Positions 2,317 to 22,756 of a stretch of DNA of 24,404 nt are shown piece after piece. The position numbers were made by a program, and so were the translations under genes. The notes beneath the pieces are model-generated. The model saw only the letters and a program-made list of their open reading frames with translations. It ran no database searches and had not been told where the DNA came from. Source of the stretch: Candidatus Krumholzibacteriota bacterium (GTDB lineage: Bacteria; Krumholzibacteriota; Krumholzibacteriia; Krumholzibacteriales; Krumholzibacteriaceae); assembly GCA_041309565.1 (NCBI GenBank), contig JBFYZJ010000278.1, positions 1 to 24,404 of the forward strand, given 5' to 3'. Position 1 is the stretch's first letter; each line of letters begins with the position of its first letter.

Positions 2317-3107
<791 letters not shown>

Positions 3108-3126
3108 CGGTCCGTTCTTCCGGGAG

Positions 3127-3167
3127 GCGGGGGAGCGGGGCGCCTTCGGCGGTCCCGTTTTCCCCGC
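3127..3167 (+). other. Long GC-rich intergenic stem-loop between pyrR and pyrB
   Basis: GCGGGGGA-GCGGGG-CGCC-TTC-GGCG-G-TCCCGT-T-TTCCCCGC, about 18 bp including G-U pairs; no downstream U tract. Confidence 0.5.
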
Positions 3168-3206
3168 GCCCGGCGGGCGCCGGTCACCGAAAGGGGGAGG
3201 CCCACC

Positions 3207-4157
3207 GTGCCGTTTAACAGAAAGCACCTTCTTGCCCTCGAGGAGCTCGCCGCCGAGGAAATCACGACGATCCTCGATACGGCCGACACGTTCAAGGAGA
3301 TCTCCGAGCGGCCGATCAAGAAGGTACCCGCCCTCAGGGGCAAAACGATCGCAAACCTCTTCTACGAGCCGAGCACGCGGACACGCATCAGCTTCGAGCT
3401 CGCCGAGAAGCGCCTGAGCGCCGACACGGTGAGCTTCTCGAAGGCGGGCTCGTCGGTGTCGAAGGGGGAGACGCTCCGCGACACCGTCGAGAACATCCGC
3501 GCGATGAAGGTCGACATGGTCGTCATGCGGCACGGCTCGTCGGGGGCGCACCGGTTCCTCGCGAATTTTCTCGACGCCTCGATCGTCAACGCGGGGGACG
3601 GGCAGCACGAGCATCCGACGCAGGGGCTCCTCGACATGATGACGATGCGCCAGCATCTCGGCGCGCTCGCCGGCAAGCGCGTGACGATCATCGGGGACAT
3701 CATGCACAGCCGCGTGGCGCGCTCGAACATCTGGGGGCTCACGAAGCTCGGCGCCGCGGTCACCGTGTGCGGGCCGTCGACGATGATGCCGGCCGAGATC
3801 GAGCGGCTCGGCGAGGGGGGCGTGACGGTCGAGTACGACATCCGCAAGGCGGTCGCCGAGGCGGACGCGATCAACATCCTCCGAATCCAGCTCGAGCGCC
3901 AGAAGGCCCGGCTCTTCCCGAGCATGCGGGAATATTTCGAAGTGTTCGGCGTGACGCCTGAAGTGCTCGAATCGGCCCCGGAGCACTGCATCGTCATGCA
4001 TCCCGGCCCGATGAACCGGGGAGTCGAAATCGCCCAGGAGATCGCGGACGGCGACCGCGCGGTCATTCTCGAACAGGTCACGAACGGCGTCGCGGTGCGC
4101 ATGGCGGTGCTCTTCCTCGTCGCGGGGGGCAGCTTCGACTCGGGGCCGCTCGAATAG
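3207..4157 (+). CDS. pyrB: Aspartate carbamoyltransferase catalytic subunit
   Basis: FYEPSTRTRISFE, DGQHEHPTQGLLD, HPGPMNRG; GGAGG RBS 3196-3200 before GTG. Confidence 0.97.
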   Translation: MPFNRKHLLALEELAAEEITTILDTADTFKEISERPIKKVPALRGKTIANLFYEPSTRTRISFELAEKRLSADTVSFSKAGSSVSKGETLRDTVENIRAMKVDMVVMRHGSSGAHRFLANFLDASIVNAGDGQHEHPTQGLLDMMTMRQHLGALAGKRVTIIGDIMHSRVARSNIWGLTKLGAAVTVCGPSTMMPAEIERLGEGGVTVEYDIRKAVAEADAINILRIQLERQKARLFPSMREYFEVFGVTPEVLESAPEHCIVMHPGPMNRGVEIAQEIADGDRAVILEQVTNGVAVRMAVLFLVAGGSFDSGPLE

Positions 4158-4185
4158 CGGCAGGCTTTTGCATAGAGGAGATTCA

Positions 4186-5484
4186 ATGATCGACTGGAAG
4201 GACAAACGGGAATTCTGGATCGCGGGCGGGAAGATCGCCGATCCCGAGACGGAGCGGCTCCGCGTCGGCTCCGTATGCGTGCAGAAGGGGAAGATCACCG
4301 ATATCGTCTGGCAGAAGAGCGTCGAAACGGACCTCCCCGTGCTCGACGCCGAGCGCTGCGTGCTGGCGCCCGGCTTCGTCGATCTCCACACGCATCTCCG
4401 GGAGCCCGGCTTCGAGGAGAAGGAGACGATCGAGACCGGATCGGCCGCCGCGGCGGCGGGCGGGTACACGAGCGTCGTCTGCATGGCGAACACGAATCCC
4501 GCCGTCGACGATCCGAGCGTCGTCGAGTACATCGCCTGCCGCGCCCGGGAAACGGGGCGCTGCCGCGTGTTCGTCGCGGGCGCGCTCACGAAGGGTCGCC
4601 TCGGGGAAATCATCAACGAGTACTATCACCTCAAGCGCGCGGGAGTCGTCGCGCTGAGCGACGACGGCGCCTGGGTGACGAACAGCCAGGTGATGCGCAG
4701 CGGGCTCGAGTACGCGGATCTCCACGCGCTCCCCGTCATTTCCCACTGCGAGGATTCGTTCCTCGCGCAGGCGTCGCAGATGAACGAGGGCTACACCTCG
4801 ACGCGCCTCGGGCTCAAAGGCTCGCCCGCCGCCGCCGAGGAGATCGCCGTCTCGCGCGATCTCGCGCTCGCCCAGCTCACCGGCGCGCGGCTCCATGTCG
4901 CGCACGTGTCGACGGCCGGCGCCGTCGAGCTCGTGCGGCGGGCCAAGAAGAAGGGCGTCCGCGTCACCGCCGAAGCGACGCCGCACCACCTCACGTTCGA
5001 CGACCGTCTCCTCGACGGCTACGATCCGAATTTCAAGGTGAATCCCCCGCTCCGGAGCGCGAAGGATGTCGAGGCGCTCCGCGCGGGGCTCCTCGACGGC
5101 ACCATCGACTGCGTCGCCACCGATCACGCCCCCCACAGCGAGATCGAGAAGGACGTCGAGTTCGACGAGGCGCCCGCCGGCATGATCGGGCTCGAGACGG
5201 CGTTCGCCCATCTTTACACGGAGCTCGTCGTGAAGGGCGTTCTCGACCTGCTCGATCTCGTGAAGCTCCTGACGATCAAGCCCGCGGCCGCGCTGGGGCT
5301 CCCCGGGGGCCGCATCGCGCGGGAAGGCCCGGCCGATCTCGTGCTCATCGATCCGGCCGAGGAATGGACCTTCGAAAAGCGGCTCATCCGCTCGAGATCG
5401 AAGAACACGCCGCTCATCGGCGCCCGCTTCACCGGGCGCGTGCAGGGTGTGTTCCTCGAGGGGAGATGGCAGAGCGCCGTCTGA
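4186..5484 (+). CDS. pyrC: Dihydroorotase (type I, multifunctional-complex type)
   Basis: DLHTHLREPG, LSDDG, SHCED, HVAHVST, ATDHAPH: metal ligands and catalytic Asp intact. RBS GAGGAG 4175-4180 favours ATG 4186 (432 aa). Confidence 0.96.
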   Translation: MIDWKDKREFWIAGGKIADPETERLRVGSVCVQKGKITDIVWQKSVETDLPVLDAERCVLAPGFVDLHTHLREPGFEEKETIETGSAAAAAGGYTSVVCMANTNPAVDDPSVVEYIACRARETGRCRVFVAGALTKGRLGEIINEYYHLKRAGVVALSDDGAWVTNSQVMRSGLEYADLHALPVISHCEDSFLAQASQMNEGYTSTRLGLKGSPAAAEEIAVSRDLALAQLTGARLHVAHVSTAGAVELVRRAKKKGVRVTAEATPHHLTFDDRLLDGYDPNFKVNPPLRSAKDVEALRAGLLDGTIDCVATDHAPHSEIEKDVEFDEAPAGMIGLETAFAHLYTELVVKGVLDLLDLVKLLTIKPAAALGLPGGRIAREGPADLVLIDPAEEWTFEKRLIRSRSKNTPLIGARFTGRVQGVFLEGRWQSAV

Positions 5485-5497
5485 GAGGACAATCGCC

Positions 5498-7117
5498 ATG
5501 CGCCTGCACGCGACTCGCATCACCCGCGCCCTCGCCGTCTCCGCGCTCGTCGCCGCGGCGTCGATGCCGTCGTGCGCCTATTTCAACACGCTCTACAACG
5601 CGCGCCGAATCTACGGGGAGGCGGAGAAGACGACGACGGCCGACACCGGCGCCCGCGAGCAGCGCGACAAGTATAAACAGGTCGTGCAGAAATGCGCACA
5701 GATGATCCAGGACCATCCGAAGAGCCGCTGGGTGGACGACGCGATGTTCCTCATGGGGAAAGCGCTCGTCAGGCAGGAGGAGTACGACAAGGCGATACGG
5801 ACGTTCCAGGAGATCCAGACGAATTTCCCGCAGAGCGATTACGTTCCTCATTCGATCTACTGGCTCGCGCTCGCCTATCATCTGAAGGGGGACGACGCGC
5901 AGGCGCTCGCGGCGGTCGATCGGTTTCTCGCTGAGTATCCCCGGCACGAGCTGCGTTTCGACGCCCTGTTCCTCGGCGGCGACGGCAAGCGCGCCCTCGA
6001 GGATTACGACGGAGCGCTCGAATACTACGGGATCGTCGCTTCCGAAGCGAGCAAGAAGGAGATCGTGGACGAGTCGCGGCTCAAGAGCGCCGAGCTCTTC
6101 CGCAGCCGCGGGGAATGGGACAAAGCGGCGGAGAGTTACCGCTTGGTATTGCGCAAGGGCCTCCCGTGGGAGCGGCGATACGAGATATCGCTCGCGCTCG
6201 GTGAATGCCTCACGATGACCGGCGCGTGCGCCGAGGCGCTCGCCATCTTCGACGAGCTCATTCCGAAGACGACCGTGACGCTCGAGATGCCGCCGCTTCT
6301 GCTCGGGAGGGCCGCGAGCTACGAATGCATGGATTCCATCCCCCGGGCGCTCGATGAGTACCGGGTCATCGGGACGAAGTACCCGAAGTCGGCTTTTTCC
6401 GCCGAAGCGAACTATCGCATGGGAATCATCTACCAGGAGCGGCTCGATTCGCTGCGGCTCGCCGCCGACGCGTTCGCCAAAGTGGGGGGGGAGTACGCGA
6501 ACTCGGAGTTCGCCGCCGTTTCCCTCGAGCGGAGCAGCAGCATCAAGCGTCTCCTCGAGCTGCAGCAAGCGGGGGGCGCGGGGGAGAGCGCCGAGCAGGC
6601 CGCGAACAAACGCTTCATGGCCGCCGAGATCCAGCTGACCCGGCTCGGGGATATTCCGACGGCCCTCGTCGGCTACCAGGCCGTGCTCGACAGCTTTCCC
6701 GGAACGTCCGCCGCGCCCAAGGCGGCGTACGCGATCGCGTGGATCCGCGGGAACGAGCTCGACGAGGGGGACGCGGCGATCGAGAGCTGGCGTCTCCTCG
6801 TCGAGCGCTATCCGCGCTCGTATCAGGCGAAGGGAGCGCTCGGCCAGCTCAGGAGCGCCGGCGCCGATTCCCTCGCGGCGCGCCTCGAGGCGTACCGGGA
6901 TTCGGCGCTCGCCGATACGGCGCACGCGGAACCGCCGCTTGCCGGCGCGGCGAGCGCAGACACCGCGCGTGCCGATACGCTCCGTGCGGGTCCGGCGCCG
7001 GCGGACACGGTGCGGGCCGATGCGCCTCGGGCGGGCCCGGCGCTCGCGGACACGACGCGCGTCGACACGATGCGCGTGGACACGCTGCGCGCACCGGGGG
7101 AGAGGGGTGTGCGATGA
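5498..7117 (+). CDS. Tetratricopeptide-repeat lipoprotein (SprE/PorW- or BamD-like)
   Basis: Basic N-region plus hydrophobic stretch then Cys26 (atypical lipobox MPSC), followed by CAYFNTLYNA, HPKSRWVDDAMFLMGKA and many TPR helix pairs ending in YP/FP motifs. RBS GAGGA 5485-5489; 539 aa. Confidence 0.8.
   Translation: MRLHATRITRALAVSALVAAASMPSCAYFNTLYNARRIYGEAEKTTTADTGAREQRDKYKQVVQKCAQMIQDHPKSRWVDDAMFLMGKALVRQEEYDKAIRTFQEIQTNFPQSDYVPHSIYWLALAYHLKGDDAQALAAVDRFLAEYPRHELRFDALFLGGDGKRALEDYDGALEYYGIVASEASKKEIVDESRLKSAELFRSRGEWDKAAESYRLVLRKGLPWERRYEISLALGECLTMTGACAEALAIFDELIPKTTVTLEMPPLLLGRAASYECMDSIPRALDEYRVIGTKYPKSAFSAEANYRMGIIYQERLDSLRLAADAFAKVGGEYANSEFAAVSLERSSSIKRLLELQQAGGAGESAEQAANKRFMAAEIQLTRLGDIPTALVGYQAVLDSFPGTSAAPKAAYAIAWIRGNELDEGDAAIESWRLLVERYPRSYQAKGALGQLRSAGADSLAARLEAYRDSALADTAHAEPPLAGAASADTARADTLRAGPAPADTVRADAPRAGPALADTTRVDTMRVDTLRAPGERGVR
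6911..7090 (+). repeat. Degenerate pentapeptide repeats (A/V)D(T/A)x(R/H) in the TPR protein C-terminal tail
   Basis: ADTAH, ADTAR, ADTLR, ADTVR, ADAPR, ADTTR, VDTMR, VDTLR in an Ala/Pro/Gly-rich low-complexity tail. Confidence 0.8.
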
Positions 7118-7932
7118 AGCGGGATCGCAGAGGCTGTTTCAGCGCCGCGCTGAAAAGAAACACGCGCGTATCCCCGTCCTGTTCCCTGCTCGTGCTCGAG
7201 CGGCCGGACGGTTTTCCCGACGCGCGGCCCGGTCAGTTCGTCTCGATACGGGTCGCCGATTCGCCGGTGCCGCTTCTGCGGCGGCCGTACAGCATCATGG
7301 ATTGCTCGCCGAGAACGATCTCGCTCCTCGTCAAGGCGGTCGGACGCGGCTCGTCGTCGATCGCCGCGCGGAAGCCGGGGGACGCGCTCGACATCATGGG
7401 CCCGCTCGGCGGATCGTCGTTTCCCGAGCCCGACGGGGCGCCGGCGATATTCGTCGCCGGGGGAACGGGACTCGCGCCGCTCCTCTTCGCCGCCCGCGCG
7501 TGGCGTCGGAGGCGCGTCGCGGGGAAGATCGTCATGCTCTACGGAGCGGGGAGCCGCGGCGAGCTGCTCCGCGATCTGGTGAAGGGGGAATTCTCCTCTC
7601 GCGCGTTCGCCACGCTCGACGGCTCATCGGGTTTTCACGGTGACGTCGTGGCGCTGTGCCGCTCGCTCGTCCGCGACAGGCGGCTTCCCGCCGGCGGAAC
7701 GCTCTACTCGTGCGGGCCCCGCGGCATGGTCCGCGCGCTCGAAGAGGAGGTTCGCGGCGCGTTCCGCGCCCATTACACGTCGCTCGAATCGGTCATGGCG
7801 TGCGGCGTCGGCGCGTGCCGCGGCTGCGTGGTGCCCGTCGGGAAAAAGGGAGCGACCGTGCTCAGGACCGTGTGCAACGACGGCACGGTCTTCGACGCGG
7901 CCGATATCGCCTGGGAGGAGTGGGAGGAATGA
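7114..7932 (+). CDS. pyrK: Dihydroorotate dehydrogenase electron transfer subunit (FAD, 2Fe-2S)
   Basis: PGQFV, LRRPYSI, AGGTGLAP, CGPRGM, MACGVGACRGC...VC (four Cys). ATGA overlaps on both sides; 272 aa. Confidence 0.93.
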   Translation: MKRDRRGCFSAALKRNTRVSPSCSLLVLERPDGFPDARPGQFVSIRVADSPVPLLRRPYSIMDCSPRTISLLVKAVGRGSSSIAARKPGDALDIMGPLGGSSFPEPDGAPAIFVAGGTGLAPLLFAARAWRRRRVAGKIVMLYGAGSRGELLRDLVKGEFSSRAFATLDGSSGFHGDVVALCRSLVRDRRLPAGGTLYSCGPRGMVRALEEEVRGAFRAHYTSLESVMACGVGACRGCVVPVGKKGATVLRTVCNDGTVFDAADIAWEEWEE

Positions 7933-8840
7933 AGCAGCGCGCGGCGCGATTCTCGATCGGTCCCGTCGCATTCAGGAACCGCGTGTTTCTCGCCTCCGGT
8001 CCGGCGGGCTACGGCGTCGAGTACGCCGATTTCATCAGGCTCGACCGGCTCGGGGGCGTCGTCACGAAAACGATCACACTCCGTCCGCGGGCCGGCAATC
8101 CCGGCCGGCGCCTTTGGGAGACGAGCGCGGGGCTCCTCAACAGCATCGGGCTCGAGAACGTGGGGGCGGTCGTCTTCTTCGCCGAGAAGCTCCCGGCGCT
8201 CGCCGCCGCCGGCGCGAAGCCCGTCGTGAGCCTCGGCGCCGAGGATTGGGACGATTACCGCCGGCTCCTCGACGCCGCAGCCGGCTGCGGCGGCGCCGAC
8301 GCGTTCGAGATCAACCTCTCGTGCCCGAACGTCGAGCGGGGGGGCATGGCGGTGGGGAGCGATCCCGAGCTGTTGGCGAAATACGTGCGCCGCGCCGTCG
8401 AAACGCTCGAGGGGCGTGCCGTCATCGCGAAGCTCACGCCGAACGTGAGCGACGTCGCCGTTCTCGCCAAAGCGGCGGCCTCCGCGGGGGCGCACGCGCT
8501 CACCGCGATCAACACGGTCGTCGGCGCCGATCTGTGCCCCGATCTCCGCGCGCCCGTGTTCCGGCGCGTGAGGGCGGGCCTGTCCGGGCCGGCGATCCTC
8601 CCGGTGGCGCTCGATGCCGTCTGGAAGATCGCGCGCGCCGTCGATATCCCCGTCATCGGCTCGGGCGGCGTGTCGAGCGTGGATGACGCCGGGAAATTCT
8701 TCGCGGCGGGAGCCGCGGCCGTGCAGGTCGGCACGGCGATCTTCGCCGATCCGGGTCTGCCCGAGCGCATCGCCGCCTCGCTCGCGAGGCGGGGGATCCC
8801 GCGGGCCATCGGCGCGAAACCGTCATCGAAGGAGTGCTGA
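7929..8840 (+). CDS. pyrD: Dihydroorotate dehydrogenase family 1B catalytic subunit
   Basis: KTIT, NSIGLEN, EINLSCPNV (catalytic Cys), KLTPN, GLSGPAI, GSGG, QVGTA. ATG 7929 overlaps the pyrK stop; 303 aa. Confidence 0.95.
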   Translation: MKQRAARFSIGPVAFRNRVFLASGPAGYGVEYADFIRLDRLGGVVTKTITLRPRAGNPGRRLWETSAGLLNSIGLENVGAVVFFAEKLPALAAAGAKPVVSLGAEDWDDYRRLLDAAAGCGGADAFEINLSCPNVERGGMAVGSDPELLAKYVRRAVETLEGRAVIAKLTPNVSDVAVLAKAAASAGAHALTAINTVVGADLCPDLRAPVFRRVRAGLSGPAILPVALDAVWKIARAVDIPVIGSGGVSSVDDAGKFFAAGAAAVQVGTAIFADPGLPERIAASLARRGIPRAIGAKPSSKEC

Positions 8841-9569
8841 ATGAACGCCCCGTCGAACAGCCCCGCCGTCATCGTCGCGCTCGACGTCGAGGAGCGCTCG
8901 AAGGCGCGCGATCTCGTCGCCGCGTGCGGGGACGCGATCCGCTGGTACAAGATCGGAAGCCGTCTCTTCACCGCCGAGGGTCCCGGAATCGTCGGAGAGA
9001 TCAGGGCGCTCGGCGCCTCCGTGTTTCTCGATCTCAAGTTCCACGACATTCCGGCGACCGTCGAGGGGGCCGTGCGCGCCGCGACGGCGCTCGGCGCGTC
9101 GATGATGACGATCCACACCTCGGGAGGCGTCGAGATGATGCGCGCGGCGTCGCGGGCCGCGGCGGCCGAATCGCAGCGCCTCGGCGTCGCGCGGCCGCTC
9201 GTCGTCGGCGTCACCGTGCTGACGAGCCTCTCCGGGGACGATCTTTCGCGCACCTTCGGCACGACGGGAGCGGTGCGCGATCTGGTCATGCGTCTCGCGG
9301 CTCAAGCGCGCGAGGCGGGGCTCGACGGCATCGTCGCCTCGGTCGAGGAAGCGCGCGCGGTCAAGGAGTCGCTCGGCGCCGGATTCAAGGTCGTCACGCC
9401 GGGCATCCGGCCGGCCGGCGCAGGGGCGGGGGATCAGAAGCGCGTGGCGACGCCGCGCGCGGCCCGCGACGCGGGAAGCGATTTCCTCGTCGTCGGCCGT
9501 CCGATCATCGAGGCGGACTCGCCGCGCGAGGCGGCGGAGCGCATTCTCGATGAATTGAAAGCGAGGTAA
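8841..9569 (+). CDS. pyrF: Orotidine-5'-phosphate decarboxylase
   Basis: VALD, FLDLKFHDIP (DxKxxD), GVTVLTS, VTPGIRP, DQKRVATP, VVGRPI. Confidence 0.96.
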   Translation: MNAPSNSPAVIVALDVEERSKARDLVAACGDAIRWYKIGSRLFTAEGPGIVGEIRALGASVFLDLKFHDIPATVEGAVRAATALGASMMTIHTSGGVEMMRAASRAAAAESQRLGVARPLVVGVTVLTSLSGDDLSRTFGTTGAVRDLVMRLAAQAREAGLDGIVASVEEARAVKESLGAGFKVVTPGIRPAGAGAGDQKRVATPRAARDAGSDFLVVGRPIIEADSPREAAERILDELKAR

Positions 9570-10960: not shown

Positions 10961-11057
10961 TGGAAAGTTAAGCTCCGCGCCGGGACGTTCCGCGGGCCGC
11001 AGGAACGGATGCGCCCCGTGCGCCGTCCTCGCATACCATTTGCAGAAGGGGAACGAG

Positions 11058-12020
11058 ATGAGAGTCCTCATTACCGGAATCACGGGTTTCGCCGGAAGCC
11101 ATCTCGCCGATCTCTGCCTCGCGAAGAAGGGCGTCGAGCTCTTCGGGATCGTGCGGTGGCGGAGCAGGACCGAAAACATCGAGCATGTATGGGACCGGTT
11201 GAAGCTCATCGAATGCGATCTCCGCGACGCGACGTCCACCCGCGACGCGATCGAGGAGATCCGCCCCGACTGGATCTTCCACCTCGCCGCACAGAGCTTC
11301 GTCCCGACCTCGTGGAACGCGCCGACGGAATCGCTCGTCACCAACATCGTCGGGCAGCTCAACGTGTTCGAGGCCGTGCGCAAGATCAACCTCGCGTGCC
11401 GCATCCAGATCGCGTGCTCGAGCGAGGAGTACGGCATGGTCTACCCGGACGAGGTCCCGATCAGGGAGACGAATCCCCTGCGGCCCCTGAGCCCCTACGC
11501 GGTGAGCAAGGTGGGGCAGGACATGCTCGCGTACCAGTACTTCATGAGCTATCGCACGGACGTCGTGCGGACGCGCGGATTCAACCACACGGGCCCCCGC
11601 CGCCCCGCGATTTTCGTCTGCTCCGATTTCGCCAAGCAGATCATCGATATCGAGCGCGGCGCCCGGAAGCCGGTCATCCGGGTCGGGAACCTCGACGCGC
11701 GCCGCGATTTCACCGACGTGCGCGACATCGTGCGCGGATACTGGCTCGCGCTGGAGAAGGGGAAGAGCGGCGAGGTGTACAACCTCTGCTCGGGAACGAG
11801 CTACCGCATCAGCGAAATCCTGGACATGCTCCTGTCGCTCGCGGGGGTGAAGGCCGAGGTCAAACAGGACGCCGCGCGGCTCAGGCCGAGCGACGTGCCG
11901 CACCTCGAGGGCTCCAACGAGAAATTCCGGGCGGATACGGGCTGGAAGCCCGAGATCCCGTTCGAACAGACGCTCAGGGATCTCCTCGATTTCTGGCGGA
12001 ACAATCCCGGCAGGAGATAG
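11058..12020 (+). CDS. GDP-mannose 4,6-dehydratase / GDP-6-deoxy-4-keto-mannose reductase (RMD)-like extended SDR, copy 1
   Basis: LITGITGFAG, FHLAAQSFV, SSEEYG, PYAVSK (YxxxK), FNHTGPRR, RRDFTDVRD; RBS AAGGGG before ATG 11058; 320 aa. Confidence 0.85.
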   Translation: MRVLITGITGFAGSHLADLCLAKKGVELFGIVRWRSRTENIEHVWDRLKLIECDLRDATSTRDAIEEIRPDWIFHLAAQSFVPTSWNAPTESLVTNIVGQLNVFEAVRKINLACRIQIACSSEEYGMVYPDEVPIRETNPLRPLSPYAVSKVGQDMLAYQYFMSYRTDVVRTRGFNHTGPRRPAIFVCSDFAKQIIDIERGARKPVIRVGNLDARRDFTDVRDIVRGYWLALEKGKSGEVYNLCSGTSYRISEILDMLLSLAGVKAEVKQDAARLRPSDVPHLEGSNEKFRADTGWKPEIPFEQTLRDLLDFWRNNPGRR

Positions 12021-12042
12021 CGCCCGCCGGGCTGGAGTGGTC

Positions 12043-13017
12043 ATGCGTTCACTGGTCACCGGGGCCGGCGGCTTCGTCGGCGGCTATCTCGTGCGCGAGC
12101 TCGCGGCCGCGGGGCACGAGGTCATCGCGACCGACGTCGTCGAGCCGTCGGGGCTGCCGGGCGACATCGCGCGGCGCCGCTGCGATCTCCTCGACGGCGC
12201 CGCCGTGAAGGCGCTCGTTGCGGAGGTCCGACCCGATTACGTGTTTCATCTCGCCGCGCAGAGCTCGGCGGCGCGTTCGTTCGACGAGCCGCGCTCGACG
12301 CTCGAAACGAACGTGTTCGGCACGCTCAACCTGCTCGAGGGCGTCCGATTCCTGCCGTACGAGTGCCCGGGCGCGAAGACGCGATCGGGGAAAGTCCGCG
12401 TCCTCTCCGTCGGCTCGAGCGAGGAGTACGGGCGGAGGCCGCGCGGCGCGATGCCGCTCGGCGAGGAGAGCCCGATCGAGCCGGTGAGCCCGTACGCGGT
12501 GAGCAAGGCGGCGCAGACGATGCTCGCGCTCCAGTACGAGCTCGCGTTCGGCATGGACGTCGTCGCCGCGCGGAGCTTCGGGCACACGGGGCCCGGGCAG
12601 ACCGTGCGTTTCGTGCTTCCCGCGTTCGCGCGCCAGTGCGCGGAGATACGGGCCGGGAAGCGCGAGCCGGTCGTGAAGGTCGGCAACCTCGACGTCGTCC
12701 GCGATTATCTCGACGTCCGCGACGTCGTCAGGGCGTACCGGATGCTCGCCGAGGACGCGAGCGAGCCGGGCGTGTACAACGTGTGCTCGGGGGAGGGGGT
12801 GCCGCTGCGCGACGCGCTCGATTTCCTCGTCCGCGCGTGCGGCGTCCCGGTGCGGATCGAGGAAGATCCGGGGCTCGTCCGCCCCGCGGATATACCGGCG
12901 CTCGTCGGCGACAACGCGCGTCTGCGGCGCGCCTGCGGGTGGCGGCGGGAGCATTCGACCGAGGATATGCTCGGAACGCTGTTCGAATACTGGGAACGCA
13001 TCGCAAGGGAGACATGA
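12043..13017 (+). CDS. GDP-mannose 4,6-dehydratase / RMD-like extended SDR, copy 2
   Basis: LVTGAGGFVG, FHLAAQSS, GSSEEYG, PYAVSK, HTGPGQ, VRDYLDVRD; GGAG RBS 12034-12037; 324 aa. Confidence 0.85.
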   Translation: MRSLVTGAGGFVGGYLVRELAAAGHEVIATDVVEPSGLPGDIARRRCDLLDGAAVKALVAEVRPDYVFHLAAQSSAARSFDEPRSTLETNVFGTLNLLEGVRFLPYECPGAKTRSGKVRVLSVGSSEEYGRRPRGAMPLGEESPIEPVSPYAVSKAAQTMLALQYELAFGMDVVAARSFGHTGPGQTVRFVLPAFARQCAEIRAGKREPVVKVGNLDVVRDYLDVRDVVRAYRMLAEDASEPGVYNVCSGEGVPLRDALDFLVRACGVPVRIEEDPGLVRPADIPALVGDNARLRRACGWRREHSTEDMLGTLFEYWERIARET

Positions 13018-14331
13018 ATGTTCAAAGTTTGCATGGTCGGAACCGGTTACGTGGGGCTCGTGAGCGGCGCGTGTCTCGCCGATTTCGGCAATCGCGTGAT
13101 CTGCGTCGATATCGACGAGGCGCGGCTCGACTCGATCCGCAACGGGGTCATGCCGATATACGAGCCGGGGCTCAAGGACCTCGTCGCGCGCAACTACTCG
13201 GCGGGGCGGCTCGTGTTCTCGTCCGATCTCAAATCGGCAGTCGAGGATTCGACGGTCATCTTCTCGGCGGTCGGGACGCCCGAGCGCGAGGACGGCTCGG
13301 CCGATCTCTCGTCGGTGTTCACGGTCGCGAAGGATATCGCCTCCCATATGCGCGAGTACCGCGTCTTCGTTCAGAAGAGCACGGTGCCCGTCGGAACGTC
13401 GGAGCGGGTCGGGGACATCATCCGGGAGAACCTCCGGGTCCCGGTCGAATTCGACCGCGTGTCGAATCCCGAGTTTCTCCGGGAAGGCTCGGCGATCGAG
13501 GATTTCATGCGCCCGAACCGCGTCGTCATCGGCGTCGAAAACGAGCGCGCGCGGGAGATCATGCGGGAGATCTACCGGCCGCTCTACCTCCTCGAGACGC
13601 CGATCGTCTTCACGTCCATCCGGACGGCCGAGCTCATCAAGTACGCGAGCAACGCGTTCCTGGCGACGAAGATCTCGTTCATCAACGAGATCGCCGAGCT
13701 CTGCGAGAAGGCGGGAGCGGACGTGGACGAGGTCGCGCGGGCGATGGGCCTCGACCGCCGGATCGGGCCGAAGTTCCTGCACGCGGGCATCGGATACGGC
13801 GGATCGTGCCTGCCGAAGGACGTGGCGGCGATCATCCACACGGCCGACGAAGCGGGCGTGCCCCTTCGTGTCATCAAGGCGGCCTCGGAGGTGAACCGGG
13901 CGCTCATCGACCGGCTCATGGAGAAGATCGGGAGCGAGCTGCCGGACCTCGCGGGGAAGACGATCGCCGTGCTCGGGCTCTCGTTCAAGCCGAACACGGA
14001 CGACGTGCGTGAATCGCCGGCGCTCCGTCTCGTCGAGCGCCTGCTCGACGCCGGCGCGCGCGTCAACGCGTACGACCCCGCGGCGATGGACAACGTGCGC
14101 CGGATCCACGGGGGCCGGATTTCGTACTGCGAGGACTCGTACGGCGCCGTCCGGGGCGCCGACGCGCTCGTCATCATGACCGAGTGGAACGAGTTTCGCG
14201 TGCTCGATCTCGACACGGCGAAGAAGCTTCTCCGAAACCCCGTCGTGTTCGATTGCCGGAACATCTACCAGCCGGAAGCGATGGAGAAGATGGGATTCAC
14301 GTATCATTCCTTCGGGAGGGTGACGCGGTAG
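13018..14331 (+). CDS. ugd: UDP-glucose 6-dehydrogenase (UDP-glucose/GDP-mannose dehydrogenase family)
   Basis: GTGYVG, KSTVPVG, NPEFLREG, AELIKYASNAFLATKISFINE, GYGGSCLPKD (catalytic Cys). Confidence 0.93.
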   Translation: MFKVCMVGTGYVGLVSGACLADFGNRVICVDIDEARLDSIRNGVMPIYEPGLKDLVARNYSAGRLVFSSDLKSAVEDSTVIFSAVGTPEREDGSADLSSVFTVAKDIASHMREYRVFVQKSTVPVGTSERVGDIIRENLRVPVEFDRVSNPEFLREGSAIEDFMRPNRVVIGVENERAREIMREIYRPLYLLETPIVFTSIRTAELIKYASNAFLATKISFINEIAELCEKAGADVDEVARAMGLDRRIGPKFLHAGIGYGGSCLPKDVAAIIHTADEAGVPLRVIKAASEVNRALIDRLMEKIGSELPDLAGKTIAVLGLSFKPNTDDVRESPALRLVERLLDAGARVNAYDPAAMDNVRRIHGGRISYCEDSYGAVRGADALVIMTEWNEFRVLDLDTAKKLLRNPVVFDCRNIYQPEAMEKMGFTYHSFGRVTR

Positions 14332-14375
14332 CGGACCGCGCGCGGCTCCCGCAACCGGGCCGCAAGGAGGCGCCG

Positions 14376-15410
14376 ATGCGGAAGATCCTCGTCACGGGGG
14401 GAGCGGGATTCATCGGGTCGAATTTCGTCCGACTCCTCCGCCGGGAGGGGCGGAAGGTCGAGATCACCGTTCTCGACAAGCTCACGTACGCCGGCAATCT
14501 GGACAACGTGCGCGAATTCATGAAGCGGAGGGATTTCCGGTTCGTCCGCGGGGACATCGGCGACGCCCGCCTGCTCGACGAGCTGCTTCCCGGCGTCGAC
14601 ATCGTCTACAACTTCGCCGCGGAAACGCACGTCGACCGTTCGATTCTCGAGGCGGGAAGCTTCGTGAAGACGGACGTGCTCGGCACGTACGTGCTCCTGC
14701 AGCGCGCGCTCAAGGCGCGCGTGCCCCGCTTCGTCCAGGTGTCGACCGACGAGGTGTACGGCAGCACCGCGCGCGGGAGCTTCCGGGAGAGCGATCCCGT
14801 GCAGCCGAACAGCCCCTACTCGGCGAGCAAATCGGGCGCCGACCTCCTCGTGCGCGCGTTTCACAAGACGTACGGCTTTCCCGCCGTGATCACGCGGAGC
14901 TCGAACAACTACGGGCCGTACCAGCACCCCGAGAAATTCATCCCGCTCTTCATCACGAACGCGATCGAGGGCAAACCGCTGCCGATCTACGGCGACGGCT
15001 CGAACGTGCGCGACTGGATCTACGTCGAGGACAACTGCCGGGCGATCGAGCTCGTCGGACGGCGGGGGATCGTCGGGGAGGCGTACAACATCGGCGCCGA
15101 CGAGGAGCATCCGAACATCGAGATCGCACGGAAGATCATCGAGCTCACCGGCGCGGACCGGGAGCTGCTCACGTTCGTTTCCGATCGGCCCGGGCACGAC
15201 TGGCGCTACTCGCTCGACGCGCGGAAGATCCGCGCCCTCGGATGGCGGCCGCGCGTCGAATTCGACGAAGGCATCGAGCACACCGTGCGCTGGTACGAGC
15301 GCAACGCGATCTGGTGGAAGCCCGTCAAGGAGGGCAGCTTCAAGCGCTACTACGCGAAGCTCTACCGTTCGCGGATCGGGGAATCGACGCGGCGAAAGGA
15401 GAAACGGTGA
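14376..15410 (+). CDS. rfbB: dTDP-glucose 4,6-dehydratase
   Basis: VTGGAGFIGSNF, DKLTYAGN, AAETHVDRS, STDEVYG, PYSASK, NNYGP, RDWIYVED, DRPGHD; RBS AAGGAGG 14364-14370; 344 aa. Confidence 0.95.
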   Translation: MRKILVTGGAGFIGSNFVRLLRREGRKVEITVLDKLTYAGNLDNVREFMKRRDFRFVRGDIGDARLLDELLPGVDIVYNFAAETHVDRSILEAGSFVKTDVLGTYVLLQRALKARVPRFVQVSTDEVYGSTARGSFRESDPVQPNSPYSASKSGADLLVRAFHKTYGFPAVITRSSNNYGPYQHPEKFIPLFITNAIEGKPLPIYGDGSNVRDWIYVEDNCRAIELVGRRGIVGEAYNIGADEEHPNIEIARKIIELTGADRELLTFVSDRPGHDWRYSLDARKIRALGWRPRVEFDEGIEHTVRWYERNAIWWKPVKEGSFKRYYAKLYRSRIGESTRRKEKR

Positions 15411-16498
15411 AGACGGCGGTCATCGTCGGAGCCCGGCCGAATTTCATGAAAGCGGCGCCGCTCATCCGCGAGTTCAGGAAGCGCCGCCGTTTCGAGTGCA
15501 TGTTGATCCACACGGGGCAGCATTACGACGAGAACATGTCGCGCGTGTTTTTCGAAGACCTCGAGCTCCCGGAGCCCGATATCCATCTCGGCGTCGGATC
15601 GGGATCCCACGCGGAGCAGACGGCGCGGATCATGACCGCGTTCGAGGACGTCGTCGCGCGGGAGCGCCTCGATCTCGTCATCGTCGTCGGGGATGTGAAC
15701 TCGACGCTGGCCTGCTCGCTCGTCGCGGCGAAAGCGCTCGTTCCGGTCGCCCACGTCGAGGCGGGGCTCCGGAGCTTCGATCTCGCGATGCCCGAGGAGA
15801 TCAACCGCATGGTAACCGACATCCTCTCGCGCTACTGCTTCACGACCTCCCCCGAGGCGGAGACGAATCTGCTGCGCGAGGGGGTGGGGCCCGAGCGAAT
15901 CTTCTTCGTCGGCAACATCATGATCGATTCGCTCCTCTTCTACCTCGAGAAAGCGGAGCGCTCCCGCGTGCTCGAGAATCTCGGCGCGGCGCCGGGAGGA
16001 TACGTGCTCGTCACGTTGCACCGGCCGTCCAACGTCGACGAGGGAGGGGTGTTCGCCCGCCTCATGGAGGCGCTCGCCGGTCTCTCGCGGTCGCTCCCCG
16101 TGATCTTTCCGGTCCATCCGCGGACGCGGAAAACGATCGAATCGTCGCGCGGCGCCGTCGAGATCCCCGACGGACTGAAGCTCATCGAGCCGCTCGGCTA
16201 TCTCGATTTCGTCAAGGCGATGCGCCACGCGCGCATCGTCGTCACCGATTCGGGCGGCATCCAGGAGGAGACCACGGTGCTCGGTGTTCCGTGCATCACG
16301 GTGCGCGAGAACACGGAGCGGCCGATCACGGTCGAGATTGGTACGAACGTGCTCGTCGGATCCGATCCCGGCAAAATCCGTGACGAGGCCGCGCGGATTC
16401 TCGCCGGTCCCGCGCGTCCCCACCGCGTGCCGCCTCTTTGGGACGGGAAGGCCGCGGAGCGGATCGCCGACGTTCTCGAACGACGGTTCCCGGCCTGA
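15407..16498 (+). CDS. wecB: UDP-N-acetylglucosamine 2-epimerase (non-hydrolysing)
   Basis: GARPNFMK, HTGQHYD, GDVNST, HVEAGLRS, PEEINR, TDSGGIQEE, RENTERP; GTGA overlap with rfbB, RBS AAAGGAG 15395-15401. Confidence 0.93.
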   Translation: MKTAVIVGARPNFMKAAPLIREFRKRRRFECMLIHTGQHYDENMSRVFFEDLELPEPDIHLGVGSGSHAEQTARIMTAFEDVVARERLDLVIVVGDVNSTLACSLVAAKALVPVAHVEAGLRSFDLAMPEEINRMVTDILSRYCFTTSPEAETNLLREGVGPERIFFVGNIMIDSLLFYLEKAERSRVLENLGAAPGGYVLVTLHRPSNVDEGGVFARLMEALAGLSRSLPVIFPVHPRTRKTIESSRGAVEIPDGLKLIEPLGYLDFVKAMRHARIVVTDSGGIQEETTVLGVPCITVRENTERPITVEIGTNVLVGSDPGKIRDEAARILAGPARPHRVPPLWDGKAAERIADVLERRFPA

Positions 16499-16533
16499 TC
16501 GTGCCATGGCTCGGCCCATCCCCGGCGGGAAAC

Positions 16534-18000
16534 ATGCGTGAGAAGATCAAGGAACTGACCAAGGACACGGCGATCTACGGCATCTCCACCATCATCGGCC
16601 GTTTCCTCGGCTTTCTGCTCGTTCCCTTCTACACCCATTTCATATCGCGCGGCGACATGGGCATCTACGCCAACATCTACGCGTATATGGCGTTCCTGAA
16701 CATCGTCTGCATCTACGGCATGGACGCCGCGTTCATGAAGTACAGCTCGCTGGCCGCGCCGGAGCGCAAGAAGCAGACCTTCTCGACCGCCTACCTGTTC
16801 GTCGTCCTGTCGACCCTGTTCCTCGCCGCGCTGCTGTTTGCGCTGCGCGGGCCGTTCGCCGCTTTGATGGAAGTCCCCGGCCTCTATCGCAGACTGGTCT
16901 CGTACGTCGTTTTCATCCTGTTCTTCGATACCCTGGCCCTGATTCCCTTCGCCAACCTGCGCCTCGAGCGGAAGGCGAAGAAATTCGCCGCGATCAAGCT
17001 CGTCAACATCCTGCTCAACCTCGGATTGAATCTCCTGTTTTTCATCACCTTCCGCCTCGGCATCGAGTCCATATTCGTCGCGAACCTCATCGCGTCCGCC
17101 GTGACGTTCCTGGCGCTCCTGCCGGAGATCCGGCCGAGGCTGCGTTTCCGGATCGAGGGCGCTCAGCTGCGGCAGATGCTGCGCTTCGGCCTGCCCTATC
17201 TTCCGGCAAGTCTGGCATCGATGATGGTCCAGGTCATCGATCGGCCCATCGTCCTGGCCCTGACCGACGCCGATACGCTCGGGCTGTATCAGACCGGCCA
17301 CAAGCTCGGCGTTTTCATGATGCTGGTGGTTTCCATGTTCCAATACGCCTGGCAGCCGTTTTTCCTGAACAACGCCCGGGAGAAAAACGCAAAGCAGATG
17401 TTCGCCGCGATCATGACCTTGTTCGTCCTGGCAGCCAGCCTGCTCTGGGTGATCGTTTCCCTGTTCATCGACAACGTCGCCGGCCTGGAATTCGCCCCCG
17501 GACGAACGCTCATCGAGGGGAGCTTCCTTCCCGGGCTGGTCGTGGTGCCGGTCATCCTGCTCGCGTACCTTTTCAACGGCATCTACGTCAACCTGCAGGC
17601 CGGGATATACATCGAGGAAAAGACGAAGTATTTCCCGCTCGTGACCGTGGCGGGCGCCGCGGTCAACGTGGCGGCCAACCTGTTCCTGATACCGCCGCTG
17701 GGCATCATGGGGGCTGCGTTGGCCGTGCTCGCGAGCTACGTCGTGATGGCGCTCTCGCTCTTCCTCGTCACGCGCCGGATCTATCCGGTCGCGTACGAGT
17801 TCGGGAAGCTGGCGAAGATCTTGGCGACGGTCATCGTCACCGGGCTCGCCTACTACTACCTGTATTACCGCGTCGGCCTGGAGCTCTGGCACAGATTCAT
17901 CCTCCTCGGGGCATTCGTCGCGATGCTCGCCCTCCTGCGCGTCGTCGGGAAAGAGGATCTGCGGCGCCTGCGCCGGCGGCTCCCTGAAAGTCCCGCTTGA
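16534..18000 (+). CDS. wzx: Oligosaccharide flippase (Wzx/MOP superfamily)
   Basis: 488 aa, about 13-14 TM helices; KDTAIYGISTIIGRFLGFLLVPFYT N-terminus, GLYQTGHKL, FQYAWQP. Confidence 0.85.
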   Translation: MREKIKELTKDTAIYGISTIIGRFLGFLLVPFYTHFISRGDMGIYANIYAYMAFLNIVCIYGMDAAFMKYSSLAAPERKKQTFSTAYLFVVLSTLFLAALLFALRGPFAALMEVPGLYRRLVSYVVFILFFDTLALIPFANLRLERKAKKFAAIKLVNILLNLGLNLLFFITFRLGIESIFVANLIASAVTFLALLPEIRPRLRFRIEGAQLRQMLRFGLPYLPASLASMMVQVIDRPIVLALTDADTLGLYQTGHKLGVFMMLVVSMFQYAWQPFFLNNAREKNAKQMFAAIMTLFVLAASLLWVIVSLFIDNVAGLEFAPGRTLIEGSFLPGLVVVPVILLAYLFNGIYVNLQAGIYIEEKTKYFPLVTVAGAAVNVAANLFLIPPLGIMGAALAVLASYVVMALSLFLVTRRIYPVAYEFGKLAKILATVIVTGLAYYYLYYRVGLELWHRFILLGAFVAMLALLRVVGKEDLRRLRRRLPESPA

Positions 18001-18025
18001 CACGTCAGTCCGGATATTCAATGCT
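17997..18025 (+). promoter_or_regulatory. Possible internal promoter for the WecA-like gene
   Basis: Perfect TTGACA (17997-18002, overlapping the wzx stop) - 17 nt - weak -10 AATGCT. Confidence 0.35.
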
Positions 18026-18059
18026 TTGAGGAGAAGCACGGATACCAAGGAGATGAACC

Positions 18060-19166
18060 GTGACGAGAATCGGGCTCTTGACGGCGGTCGTTCTATCCTT
18101 CGCGCTCGGGTTGCTCTTCACGCCGCTCGTCCGGGGCATGGCGACGCGCCTGCGAATCTGCGAGAAGCCGAACGGGCGCACGAGCAGGGATATCGTGCAT
18201 ATCGGCGGCGTCGGCATCATCGGTGCGATCCTCTTCACGCTCCTGCCGACGTTCCTGTTCTTCCTGCCCGGCGGACCGGTCGTGCAGGCGTTCACCCCGG
18301 TGCTGATCGCGAGCGGCTTTCTCATCTTTCTCCTCGGCATCATCGACGACCTGCGGAGCCTGCACTACATCTACAAGCTCATTCTGCAGATCGCCGTCTC
18401 GGTTTTCGTCGCCGCCGTGGGACTCGCGCTCCTCATGCATTTCGGCGCGTCCCACATCGCCGTGTATCTCATCGTGCCGCTGGTCTTCGCGATCGCCGGT
18501 TGGATGCTCGTCGTCACGACGTCGTTCAACCTGATCGACGGGCTCGACGGGCTCGCGTCGGGGCTCGCGTTCATCGCGGCGGCGGCGTTCGCCGTCGCCG
18601 GCCAGCTTTTCGGCCAGCCGCTCGTCGTCGCGGTCGCGCTCGTCGTATGCGGCGCGACGCTCTCGTTTCTCAGATATAACTTTCCTCCGGCGACGATCTT
18701 CATGGGCGATTCGGGCAGCCTCTTCCTCGGCCTGCTGTTCGGGCTCGTTTCGCTGCTGCTCCTCGTACCGGGGGACCGCGTCTTCTACCGGATCGCAGGG
18801 GATATCATGATCCTCGCCGTGCCGATCCTCGACACGGCGCTCGCATTCACGCGGCGGATGCTCACGCGCCGCCCCGTGTTCGAGGCCGATCACCGGCATA
18901 TCCACCACATGCTCCTCTACCGGTGCCGGTCGGCGCGGAGCGTCGATCTCACGCTCTGGGGAGTGTCCGCCGTCTTCGGCGCGCTCGGCGTTCTCACGAT
19001 GCGGGGAAGCATCGTCGCGCTCGCCGCGGGATCGGCGCTCGCGCTGTTCGTATTCGTGATCGCGCTCCGCTCGATGGTGCGCTTCAAAATGCCCGTCACG
19101 GCCGAGGAGGAGATTCTCGGCGTGTGCGGCATCACCTCCGCCCGGGGCGTCGCGCGCCAGCGATAG
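18060..19166 (+). CDS. Undecaprenyl-phosphate N-acetylhexosamine-1-phosphate transferase (WecA/TagO, MraY-like family)
   Basis: GIIDDL, FNLIDGLDGLA, YNFPPATIFMGDSGS, PILDT, DHRHIHH; RBS AAGGAG 18047-18052 before GTG. Confidence 0.9.
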   Translation: MTRIGLLTAVVLSFALGLLFTPLVRGMATRLRICEKPNGRTSRDIVHIGGVGIIGAILFTLLPTFLFFLPGGPVVQAFTPVLIASGFLIFLLGIIDDLRSLHYIYKLILQIAVSVFVAAVGLALLMHFGASHIAVYLIVPLVFAIAGWMLVVTTSFNLIDGLDGLASGLAFIAAAAFAVAGQLFGQPLVVAVALVVCGATLSFLRYNFPPATIFMGDSGSLFLGLLFGLVSLLLLVPGDRVFYRIAGDIMILAVPILDTALAFTRRMLTRRPVFEADHRHIHHMLLYRCRSARSVDLTLWGVSAVFGALGVLTMRGSIVALAAGSALALFVFVIALRSMVRFKMPVTAEEEILGVCGITSARGVARQR

Positions 19167-20213: not shown

Positions 20214-21485
20214 ATGCTCGACCGGAAACTCATACGGAAAGATCCCGAACGGGTGCGGGAAGGGCTGCGTCGCAAGGGATCGACGTTCGATCTCGACGCG
20301 TTCCTCGCGCTCGACGAGAAGCAGCGCGCGCTCATCCAGGAGACGGAGAATCTCAAGCACGAGCGGAACGAGGCCTCCCAGGAGATTTCGCGCCTCAAGA
20401 AGGAGAACCTCGACGCGACGGCGATTCTCGAGCGGATGAAGCGCTCCTCCGAGCGGATCAAGGAAATCGACGCCGAGCTCAAGGAGCTCGGCGCGCGGAT
20501 CGACGAGCAGGCGCTTCTCATTCCGAATCTCCCGCACGAGTCGGCGCCGTACGGCACGTGCCCGGAGCACAACGTGGTGCAGCGGTCCTGGGGTTCGGTT
20601 CCCGATCCGTTCGACGGGATGCTCCCGCACTGGGATATCGGCGAGAAGCTCGGAATCATCGATATCGGCGCCGGCAGCTGCCTGAGCGGCCGGGGATTCG
20701 TGGTGCTCCGCGGGGAGGGAGCGCGCCTGTCGCGGGCGCTCGTCAATTTCATGATCGATCTGCATCGCGAGCAGGGCTACGAGGAAATCTCGGTTCCGTA
20801 TCTCGTGAGTCGCGAATGCATGATCGGCACGGGACAGCTTCCGAAGCTCGCTGAGGACATGTACCACAGCGAAAAGGACGATCTCTTCCTCATCCCCACG
20901 GCCGAAGTGCCGCTCACCAACATGTACCGCGGGGCGGTGCTCGACGGGGCGCGCCTCCCGGTCAAGCTCACCGCGTTCAGCCCGTGCTTCCGCCGCGAGG
21001 CGGGGAGCTACGGACAGGACACCAAAGGGCTCGTTCGCGTGCATCAGTTCGACAAGGTCGAGATGGTGAAGCTCGTGGCTCCCGAGTCGTCGTACGAGGA
21101 GCTCGAAGCGCTCACGCGCGACGCGACCGCTGTCCTCGAGGCGCTCGAAATCCCCTACCGCGTCATCGAGCTCTGCACGATGGACATGAGCTTCGGCGCC
21201 GCGAAGTGTTACGATCTCGAAACCTACGCGCCGGCGATGGGACGCTGGCTCGAGGTATCGTCGTGCAGCAGCTTCGAGGATTTCCAGGCGCGCCGCGCGA
21301 ATATCCGTTTCAAACGGCAACCGAACGAGAAGCCCGAGTTCGTGCACACGCTGAACGGCTCGGGGCTCGCGCTTCCGCGGGTCATCGCGACGATCCTCGA
21401 GCTCAACCAGACGCCGACCGGCAAGGTCCGCATTCCCCGTGCCCTCGTCCCCTACCTGGGGGGCAGGGAATACCTCGAGGCCTGA
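20214..21485 (+). CDS. serS: Serine--tRNA ligase
   Basis: N-terminal coiled coil MLDRKLIR..., LIPTAEVP, CFRREAGSYGQDTKGLVRVHQFDKVE (motif 2), EVSSCS, HTLNGSGLA (motif 3). Confidence 0.97.
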   Translation: MLDRKLIRKDPERVREGLRRKGSTFDLDAFLALDEKQRALIQETENLKHERNEASQEISRLKKENLDATAILERMKRSSERIKEIDAELKELGARIDEQALLIPNLPHESAPYGTCPEHNVVQRSWGSVPDPFDGMLPHWDIGEKLGIIDIGAGSCLSGRGFVVLRGEGARLSRALVNFMIDLHREQGYEEISVPYLVSRECMIGTGQLPKLAEDMYHSEKDDLFLIPTAEVPLTNMYRGAVLDGARLPVKLTAFSPCFRREAGSYGQDTKGLVRVHQFDKVEMVKLVAPESSYEELEALTRDATAVLEALEIPYRVIELCTMDMSFGAAKCYDLETYAPAMGRWLEVSSCSSFEDFQARRANIRFKRQPNEKPEFVHTLNGSGLALPRVIATILELNQTPTGKVRIPRALVPYLGGREYLEA

Positions 21486-21492
21486 TCGAACC

Positions 21493-22734: not shown

Positions 22735-22756
22735 CCGGGGGAGCGGATCGGAGCGT

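Follow-up and report, generated by a model that had tools for sequence, protein, structure and literature searches.

An array of D-(S/T)-hydrophobic tripeptides kept in the tail of a Krumholzibacteriota TPR lipoprotein: candidate acceptor sites for Bacteroidota-type O-glycosylation

Introduction

Sequon-directed protein O-glycosylation has been described as unique to Bacteroidota (PMC12871550). Could it, or its acceptor specificity, also occur in related phyla of the Fibrobacteres-Chlorobi-Bacteroidetes (FCB) superphylum? The question is raised by a stretch of 24,404 nucleotides (nt) of a Candidatus Krumholzibacteriota bacterium (contig JBFYZJ010000278.1, positions 1 to 24,404, forward strand; hereafter the window). 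A gene of this window, located at 5498-7117 on the + strand, encodes a predicted tetratricopeptide repeat (TPR) lipoprotein of 539 amino acids (aa), whose C-terminal region is crowded with tripeptides of the D-(S/T)-hydrophobic type. A sequence-only reading of the DNA had taken these tripeptides for a candidate mucin-like array of O-glycosylation sites under selection. The analysis described here concerns the array itself, its fate in orthologues of the lipoprotein, the other proteins encoded nearby and the systems that it may be compared with.

In glycoproteomic data from Bacteroidota, Asp nearly always precedes the modified Ser or Thr, and Glu is not tolerated at this position in Bacteroides fragilis; the residue after Ser or Thr is L, I, V, T, A or S in about 90% of cases, while M, F, C and G account for about 2% each (PMC12871550). 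The modification is limited to non-cytoplasmic proteins and to their soluble regions, and according to the same review of 2025, the O-oligosaccharyltransferase, the core flippase and the ligase of the system are still undiscovered (PMC12871550). Our literature search returned no report of sequon-directed O-glycosylation outside Bacteroidota, none of an identified transferase and none dealing with glycosylation in Krumholzibacteriota.

The tripeptide array of the window protein

The gene is supported by the list of open reading frames, by a codon-usage gene call starting at 5498 and by a database protein (P0001, 539 aa) that is 100% identical to the product of 5498-7117 (+); a GTG codon upstream, at 5447, is an alternative but less likely start. 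Translation of 6866-7090 in this frame gives DSLAARLEAYRDSALADTAHAEPPLAGAASADTARADTLRAGPAPADTVRADAPRAGPALADTTRVDTMRVDTLR. All nine D-(S/T)-[AILVMT] tripeptides reported there by the sequence-only reading were found exactly as listed: DSL, DSA, DTA, DTA, DTL, DTV, DTT, DTM and DTL, starting at 6866, 6899, 6914, 6959, 6974, 7004, 7049, 7064 and 7079, respectively. Six of them have the form (A/V)DTxR. Nine of the ten Asp residues in the 91-aa C-terminal region sit in such sequons, the tenth belonging to a degenerate unit, ADAPR (7016-7030). When the tail was shuffled with its composition preserved, the shuffled sequences carried 0.65-0.78 sequons on average and 5-6 at most, and none of 200,000 reached nine.

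The composition of the tail (A 26%, R 13%, D 11%, P 8%, G 8%; S+T 13%) makes it rich in Ala, Arg and Asp, and not in Ala, Pro and Gly as had been stated. The term 'mucin-like' is also too strong, since Ser and Thr make up only 13% of the tail residues (18.5% in the orthologues), with about one sequon per 10-15 residues, whereas mucin-like (proline-threonine-serine, PTS) regions were defined here as having roughly a quarter or more of Ser+Thr.

A model computed by AlphaFold2 from an alignment of 29 sequences (A1) places the array across the border between the folded and the disordered part of the protein. The last helix (aa 457-475; 6866-6922, +) carries the first three sequons, DSL (6866-6874), DSA (6899-6907) and DTA (6914-6922). 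The other six, DTA (6959-6967), DTL (6974-6982), DTV (7004-7012), DTT (7049-7057), DTM (7064-7072) and DTL (7079-7087), all on the + strand, lie together with ADAPR in a C-terminal tail of 64 residues (aa 476-539; 6923-7114, +), which is predicted to be disordered, being without secondary structure and having a predicted local distance difference test (pLDDT) score below 50. In the 29-sequence alignment D468 and S469 are invariant, and D473 is conserved in at least 90% of the sequences.

Beneath the array, Tandem Repeats Finder detects diverged tandem units (6944-7091, +), with a period of 45 nt at 6944-7059 (2.6 copies, 74% matches) and of 15 nt at 7048-7091 (2.9 copies, 86% matches), and for this reason the nine sequons are not independent events. 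Such units, in a genome of 66% GC where Ala, Thr, Leu and Val are common, could mean that the array arose neutrally, from the expansion of tandem repeats and from high-GC composition, without selection on the tripeptide. However, synonymous codons differ between the units (GCA/GCC/GCG, GAC/GAT, ACC/ACG, CGT/CGG/CGC), and the tail DNA was found to contain no exact direct repeats of at least 12 nt. This argues against a recent duplication artefact and indicates that the amino-acid pattern was kept while the DNA drifted.

Selection on the tripeptide in orthologous tails

About 100 orthologues with 41-85% identity were found in metagenomes, and the named ones belong to Candidatus Krumholzibacteriota: those of 74-75% identity, as well as many more distant ones, are called Candidatus Krumholzibacteriota or Krumholzibacteriia by their sources. 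We anchored 97 orthologues where the TPR body ends in conserved sequence, and all of them have the double sequon Y(V/I)DSA(L/M/V)ADT(T/A) in common. The tails that follow this double sequon are 14-173 residues long and largely unalignable. The tail statistics cover the variable tails of 94 orthologues (8,655 residues) and leave out P0014, a 79% identical orthologue. After ADSL the tail of P0014 turns Arg/Pro-rich (RRISRPTGIRRSPIRPRHPG...), which looks like an assembly frameshift.

Asp is followed by Ser or Thr in 560 of its 727 occurrences in these tails (77%; Ser 262, Thr 298). The third position is occupied by T (147), L (142), A (113), S (65), V (38), I (35), M (12) and, in 8 cases, other residues, so that 552 of the 560 D-(S/T)-x tripeptides (98.6%) have an allowed third residue (T/L/A/S/V/I/M); P, G and R are nearly absent there, despite making up 12%, 8% and 8% of the tail residues. 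Drift of homologous tails beyond the allowed residues, named by the sequence-only reading as the outcome that would speak against glycosylation, is therefore not what the orthologues display.

The motif D[ST][AILVMT] occurs 487 times, against 56.6 +/- 7.4 in shuffled tails (8.6-fold). The control motifs were not enriched in the same tails: E[ST][AILVMT] occurs 28 times with 32.6 expected (0.86-fold), and the values for N[ST][AILVMT] and for the reversed motif are 1.2-fold and 0.52-fold. The result for Glu points to selection on Asp itself, rather than to the specificity of an enzyme, and fits the strict requirement for Asp in B. fragilis (PMC12871550). Enrichment is significant individually (p<0.01) in 86 of the 94 tails, which are unrelated in sequence and span a GC range of 44-69%, and it persists when the tails are reduced to 13 non-redundant clusters (<45% identity), with 53 sequons against 7.0 +/- 2.4. 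On average, there are about 6.5 sequons per 100 aa. The closest orthologue (locus L001), with 84% identity, shows an in-frame indel of 30 nt and carries six sites to the nine of the window protein, which suggests that the sites turn over fast while their number stays high.

Judged by these comparisons, the D-(S/T)-x tripeptide of the tail is under selection. Given the failure of all shuffles to reach nine, the synonymous divergence of the units, and an enrichment that is seen tail by tail and is not shared by control motifs of the same composition, a neutral origin of the array appears extremely improbable and, as far as sequence analysis goes, may be regarded as effectively excluded.

Many orthologues (P0002-P0030 and others) also have a conserved last sequon near a short basic/Gly C-terminus, for example PADTLNPAK(R/Q)GGAG, PDTVKKGGTP or PADTAGARTD. 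The C-terminal end of the window protein (7079-7114) reads VDTLRAPGERGVR.

Comparison with the Bacteroidota sequon

By its residue preferences, the tail tripeptide matches the published Bacteroidota sequon at all three positions, exclusions included: the same acceptor D-(S/T)-(A/I/L/V/M/T, later also S), with strict Asp and with Pro, Gly and charged residues excluded at +1. The carrier in the window is also of the type expected, a predicted non-cytoplasmic lipoprotein with six of nine sites in a predicted disordered soluble segment, and the organism belongs to the same FCB superphylum as Bacteroidota and has regulatory genes of a type IX secretion system (T9SS). Envelope machinery is shared between the lineage and Bacteroidota, as shown by a PorX equivalog encoded in the window. 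The TPR lipoprotein PorW of Porphyromonas gingivalis is among the outer-membrane-associated proteins with the most found or predicted O-glycosylation sites (PMC8729774). Unlike in Bacteroidota, where one or a few sites occur on about half of the exported proteins, the sites here form a dense repeat array on one family; the host is a member of Krumholzibacteriota, the glycoproteomic evidence is confined to Bacteroidota, and the tail sites are predicted from sequence.

We consider it fairly probable that the tripeptides of the tail and of the preceding helix serve as acceptors of O-glycans attached in the periplasm with Bacteroidota-type specificity, and the glycosylating system would then probably be homologous to the general O-glycosylation system of Bacteroidota. 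From the original proposal of selection for a glycosylated tail, a tripeptide selected with the published specificity on a predicted exported lipoprotein may be kept; the label 'mucin-like' is an overstatement. In the proposed mechanism, glycans would be transferred en bloc in the periplasm to the D-(S/T)-hydrophobic sites of the envelope TPR lipoprotein, and the glycosylated tail would act as a hydrated, protease-resistant, extended spacer ending in the short conserved basic/Gly C-terminus. This C-terminus, behind the last sequon, might serve for docking at the tip of the spacer. The array would evolve through point mutations and through units of 15 nt and 45 nt gained or lost in frame, with selection holding the number of D-(S/T)-hydrophobic sites high. 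Glycan attachment, the acting enzyme and the role of the decorated tail are what we infer from this pattern.

The selected pattern could also have another meaning. The [A/P/V]-D-(S/T)-hydrophobic units might form a multivalent short linear motif, possibly bound by a periplasmic protein, by the TPR groove of the lipoprotein itself, by peptidoglycan or by a metal, or might be the site of another modification such as phosphorylation, the likeness to the sequon being coincidental. TPR domains bind peptides, copy number and spacing vary as in multivalent arrays, and many tails keep the last copy near the C-terminus, as in PADT(L/A)..AK(K/R/Q)GG(A/T)G; moreover, the array is family-specific, the other exported proteins encoded in 1.18 Mb of related loci having none. 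Against such a motif stands the three-position match to the sequon, which extends to the exclusion of E at -1 and of P, G and charged residues at +1. Conservation does not reach into the flanks beyond -1, and use of the sequon is known from a single phylum, to which the lineage is a sister group. Finally, the free exchange of Ser and Thr (262 vs 298) and the seven third residues in use fit the acceptor site of an enzyme better than a structured interface. On balance, a linear motif seems to us unlikely.

Distribution of the family and of the arrays

A scan of species-representative genomes reveals the lipoprotein family in Krumholzibacteriota, Latescibacteria, Zixibacteria, Eisenbacteria and Gemmatimonadota, and further in Cloacimonadota, Marinimicrobia, TA06, KSB1 and WOR-3. 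The family covers much of the FCB superphylum outside Bacteroidota. Arrays of the same type are found in orthologues of Latescibacteria, Zixibacteria, Eisenbacteria and a second subfamily of Krumholzibacteriia, and the family has an observed/expected (O/E) ratio of sequons of 3.9 in those loci. Cloacimonadota, Marinimicrobia, TA06, WOR-3 and one member with a Q/P-rich tail have no array or a poor one, and none was seen in the unrelated remote TPR proteins at the bottom of the match list.

Taken with O-glycosylation as the favoured meaning of the array, this distribution suggests that the sugar-attachment system may be older and more widespread than Bacteroidota. A more specific scenario, which we put forward tentatively and regard as possible rather than probable, is that the machinery for D-(S/T)-hydrophobic O-glycosylation predates Bacteroidota, that in Krumholzibacteriota, Latescibacteria, Zixibacteria and Eisenbacteria it serves, perhaps mainly, one envelope TPR lipoprotein with a multi-site tail, and that it was later generalised by Bacteroidota. 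The sequon and the chemistry are already known; what would be new is a dense array kept on one lipoprotein family in FCB candidate phyla outside Bacteroidota. It would be the first sequence-level hint found that the system, or its acceptor specificity, reaches part of the superphylum beyond that phylum.

If the proposal is true, the tail would be a very sensitive natural reporter substrate, with 6-15 sites in about 100 residues, and the origin of the O-glycosylation system could be dated. The presence and absence of arrays could also be used as a phylogenetic profile to narrow down the missing O-oligosaccharyltransferase, by looking for genes that are common to Bacteroidota and the array-positive phyla and absent from array-negative phyla such as Cloacimonadota and Marinimicrobia. 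Should glycosylation be refuted, the family would still be an unusually clean case of a three-residue motif kept in a fast-evolving disordered tail.

Sequons in exported and cytoplasmic proteins

The window and 80 related loci (1.18 Mb, 1,040 self-called genes) were used to compare exported and cytoplasmic proteins, separated by a crude signal-peptide rule and with the TPR family excluded. In the Krumholzibacteriota-type loci, the sequon O/E was 0.97-0.99 for exported proteins (47 proteins) and 0.65-0.67 for cytoplasmic ones (332 proteins). The exported/cytoplasmic ratio is 1.52 with a bootstrap confidence interval of 1.08-2.02, which is too narrow because orthologue redundancy was not removed and the proteins are largely orthologues of each other. 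In the other FCB loci, O/E was 0.90 for exported (52 proteins) and 1.00-1.02 for cytoplasmic proteins (273 proteins), and the ratio was 1.04 for 16 array-positive loci (29 exported and 120 cytoplasmic proteins).

Within the window and loci L001-L039, cytoplasmic D-(S/T) is depleted regardless of the third residue (O/E 0.65 for allowed and 0.64 for other residues), and in exported proteins only the non-sequon D-(S/T) is depleted (0.60 vs 0.99). This pattern may be an effect of composition or of orthologue redundancy. In some groups of exported orthologues encoded upstream of pyrR (L017, L022, L026, L027, L035, L036 and others), a D-(S/T)-x site stays in place and its third residue changes to other members of the permitted set: DSA/DSS/DSM near aa 143, DTT/DTA near aa 245 and DSL/DSV/DSI near aa 51. 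As anecdotal cases, these positionally kept sites are consistent with wider use of the sequon.

Several points weigh against O-glycosylation of the tail. The comparison of exported with cytoplasmic proteins is weak: it draws on about 100 exported proteins, is confounded by redundancy among orthologues, and speaks neither for nor against a general system. A density of at least 4 sequons per 60 aa was reached by no other exported protein among the approximately 100 from the same loci, and the disordered-like segments of these proteins have no bias towards D-(S/T), which involves 10% of their Asp vs 69% in the family. The array is therefore a trait of one family, and this suits a family-specific binding motif as well. 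A genus-level scan across GTDB found motif enrichment 'mainly in Bacteroidota' (PMC12871550). The structural model adds that three of the nine sequons (aa 457, 468 and 473) are on the last confidently predicted helix, and that the D-S pairs of the TPR body at aa 279-280 and 317-318 directly precede helices starting at 281 and 319, so that D-(S/T) may also be retained for structural reasons.

Predicted structure of the lipoprotein

The N-terminus of the protein (5498-5575, +) is a predicted signal peptide with a lipobox-like end (MRLHATRITRALAVSALVAAASMPS|C, M-P-S-C), and Cys26, the predicted lipidated residue, is invariant in the 29-sequence alignment. In 89 of the 97 orthologues, a basic n-region and a hydrophobic h-region are followed by [L/M/A]-x-S-C and then by AYFNTLYNAR. 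The AlphaFold2 model (mean pLDDT 85.6, and >90 across most of aa 30-470) has an all-helical TPR solenoid of 23 helices in 12 repeats, which comprises aa ~30-475 (5585-6922, +).

In this TPR body some D-S pairs are invariant or nearly so according to the alignment, namely DSI, ERLDSL and DSFP (aa 279-280, 317-319 and 398-401; 6332-6340, 6446-6454 and 6689-6700, +). The first two pairs (aa 279-280 and 317-318) are probably helix N-caps in the model. Sequons are in 2.6-fold excess in the folded TPR body, and part of this excess is probably structural, given the location of D-S pairs at helix N-termini.

The repeats are of the TPR_6 type and match NCBIfam TIGR02795 (YbgF/CpoB-type) with 120 bits (cutoff 90) and Pfam YfiO with 62 bits (cutoff 25); the same scan also shows similarity to BamD and to PorW/SprE, under the curated cutoffs. 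Foldseek gives SprE of the T9SS extended translocon of Flavobacterium (8gl8_I) as the best natural full-length match to the model, with E 3.7e-9, template modelling (TM) scores of 0.49/0.44 and a root-mean-square deviation of 10.5 over 500 columns, values to be read with the generic matching of TPR proteins in mind. A sequence search of PDB with the family profile did not recover SprE; its closest natural matches were CpoB (6g5s) and BamD, the others being generic TPR proteins. The solenoid of about 445 residues probably acts as a protein-protein scaffold, in the manner of CpoB, BamD or PorW.

With PorW/SprE the window protein shares an N-terminal lipoprotein signal followed by a long TPR solenoid, as well as the best natural full-length structural match, and the NCBIfam PorW/SprE model is matched by all 29 family members tested. 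In contrast to PorW/SprE, the window protein scores 78 bits against a cutoff of 250 with NF052312 and covers only positions 70-277 of the 716 of this profile, has 539 aa where a 716-position model implies a much longer protein, and is encoded within a pyrimidine operon. The protein is not filed as PorW because TPR solenoids match each other generically and the NF052312 score stays below its cutoff (78 vs 250 bits).

The likeness to CpoB (YbgF) and BamD (YfiO) lies in the TPR_6-type repeats and in the presumed nature of an envelope TPR scaffold. The window protein is two to four times longer than these, however, and owes its score to several copies of a single small domain. CpoB/YbgF was likewise not adopted as its identity, the gene encoding a 539-aa lipoprotein with several domain copies and lying between pyrC and pyrK, outside a tol-pal or bam context. 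To our knowledge, no C-terminal sequon array occurs in CpoB or BamD.

Genomic surroundings and glycan precursor genes

The window has 66% GC, and its 21 genes, all of which were recovered by the codon-usage method used for gene calling, are on the + strand. The TPR gene is part of a pyrimidine operon, pyrR-pyrB-pyrC-[TPR]-pyrK-pyrD-pyrF (2385-9569): it begins 13 nt downstream of pyrC, and at its end the stop codon overlaps the start of pyrK (ATGA, 7114-7117). This arrangement is conserved in most phyla, including Krumholzibacteriota, Latescibacteria, Eisenbacteria and Gemmatimonadota, among the loci compared (L001-L063, L065, L068, L075, L077 and L079).

Downstream of the operon there are a transporter gene and a candidate cluster for glycan precursors, i.e. 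nucleotide sugars and lipid carrier (11040-19166, +), recognised by Pfam and NCBIfam. It encodes two 4,6-dehydratase/epimerase-type enzymes, UDP-glucose 6-dehydrogenase, RmlB (443 bits, cutoff 365) and WecB (345 bits, cutoff 210), together with a flippase of the Wzx type and an initiating transferase of the WecA/MraY type; neither a polymerase nor a series of glycosyltransferases was found near it. In most Krumholzibacteriota-type loci the cluster is conserved behind the pyr operon, and it could supply hexuronic acid and deoxyhexose, as in the core glycan of Bacteroidota. The LFG-type locus of Bacteroidota (metG, wzx, a glycosyltransferase series and two conserved terminal glycosyltransferases) is not recognisable in the window: within its 24,404 nt, the Wzx-type flippase and the WecA-type transferase are present, and the glycosyltransferase series and metG are absent. 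The sugar cluster was rejected as evidence for glycosylation of the tail. Such genes also serve lipopolysaccharide and exopolysaccharide synthesis; some array-positive loci lack the cluster in the sequence fetched, and the array-negative locus L040 has it.

The flippase and the initiating transferase, located 9-11 kb downstream of the lipoprotein gene, are also what could be expected if the tail was O-glycosylated by an unrelated PglL/PilO-type or dedicated transferase acting on Ala/Pro-rich low-complexity sequence, the preference for D-(S/T)-x having arisen independently. The lipoprotein AniA of Neisseria, whose C-terminal AASAP repeats are O-glycosylated by PglL/PglO, has the same architecture of a low-complexity repeat tail at the C-terminus; the AniA tail is disordered and Ala/Pro-rich and carries several O-glycans added in the periplasm. 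A family-specific array would also suit a dedicated system. Unlike the tail described here, AniA has no Asp-containing sequon; it comes from another phylum, and its transferase family is known. An O-antigen-ligase-type gene was not seen in the window, and an independent origin of this kind appears to us quite improbable.

No Rfam families were found in the whole window. At its end (21439-24310, +), a histidine kinase gene is followed by that of a response regulator with a PglZ domain, which is recognised as a PorX equivalog with 638 bits (cutoff 300) and points to the probable presence of a type IX secretion system like that of Bacteroidota.

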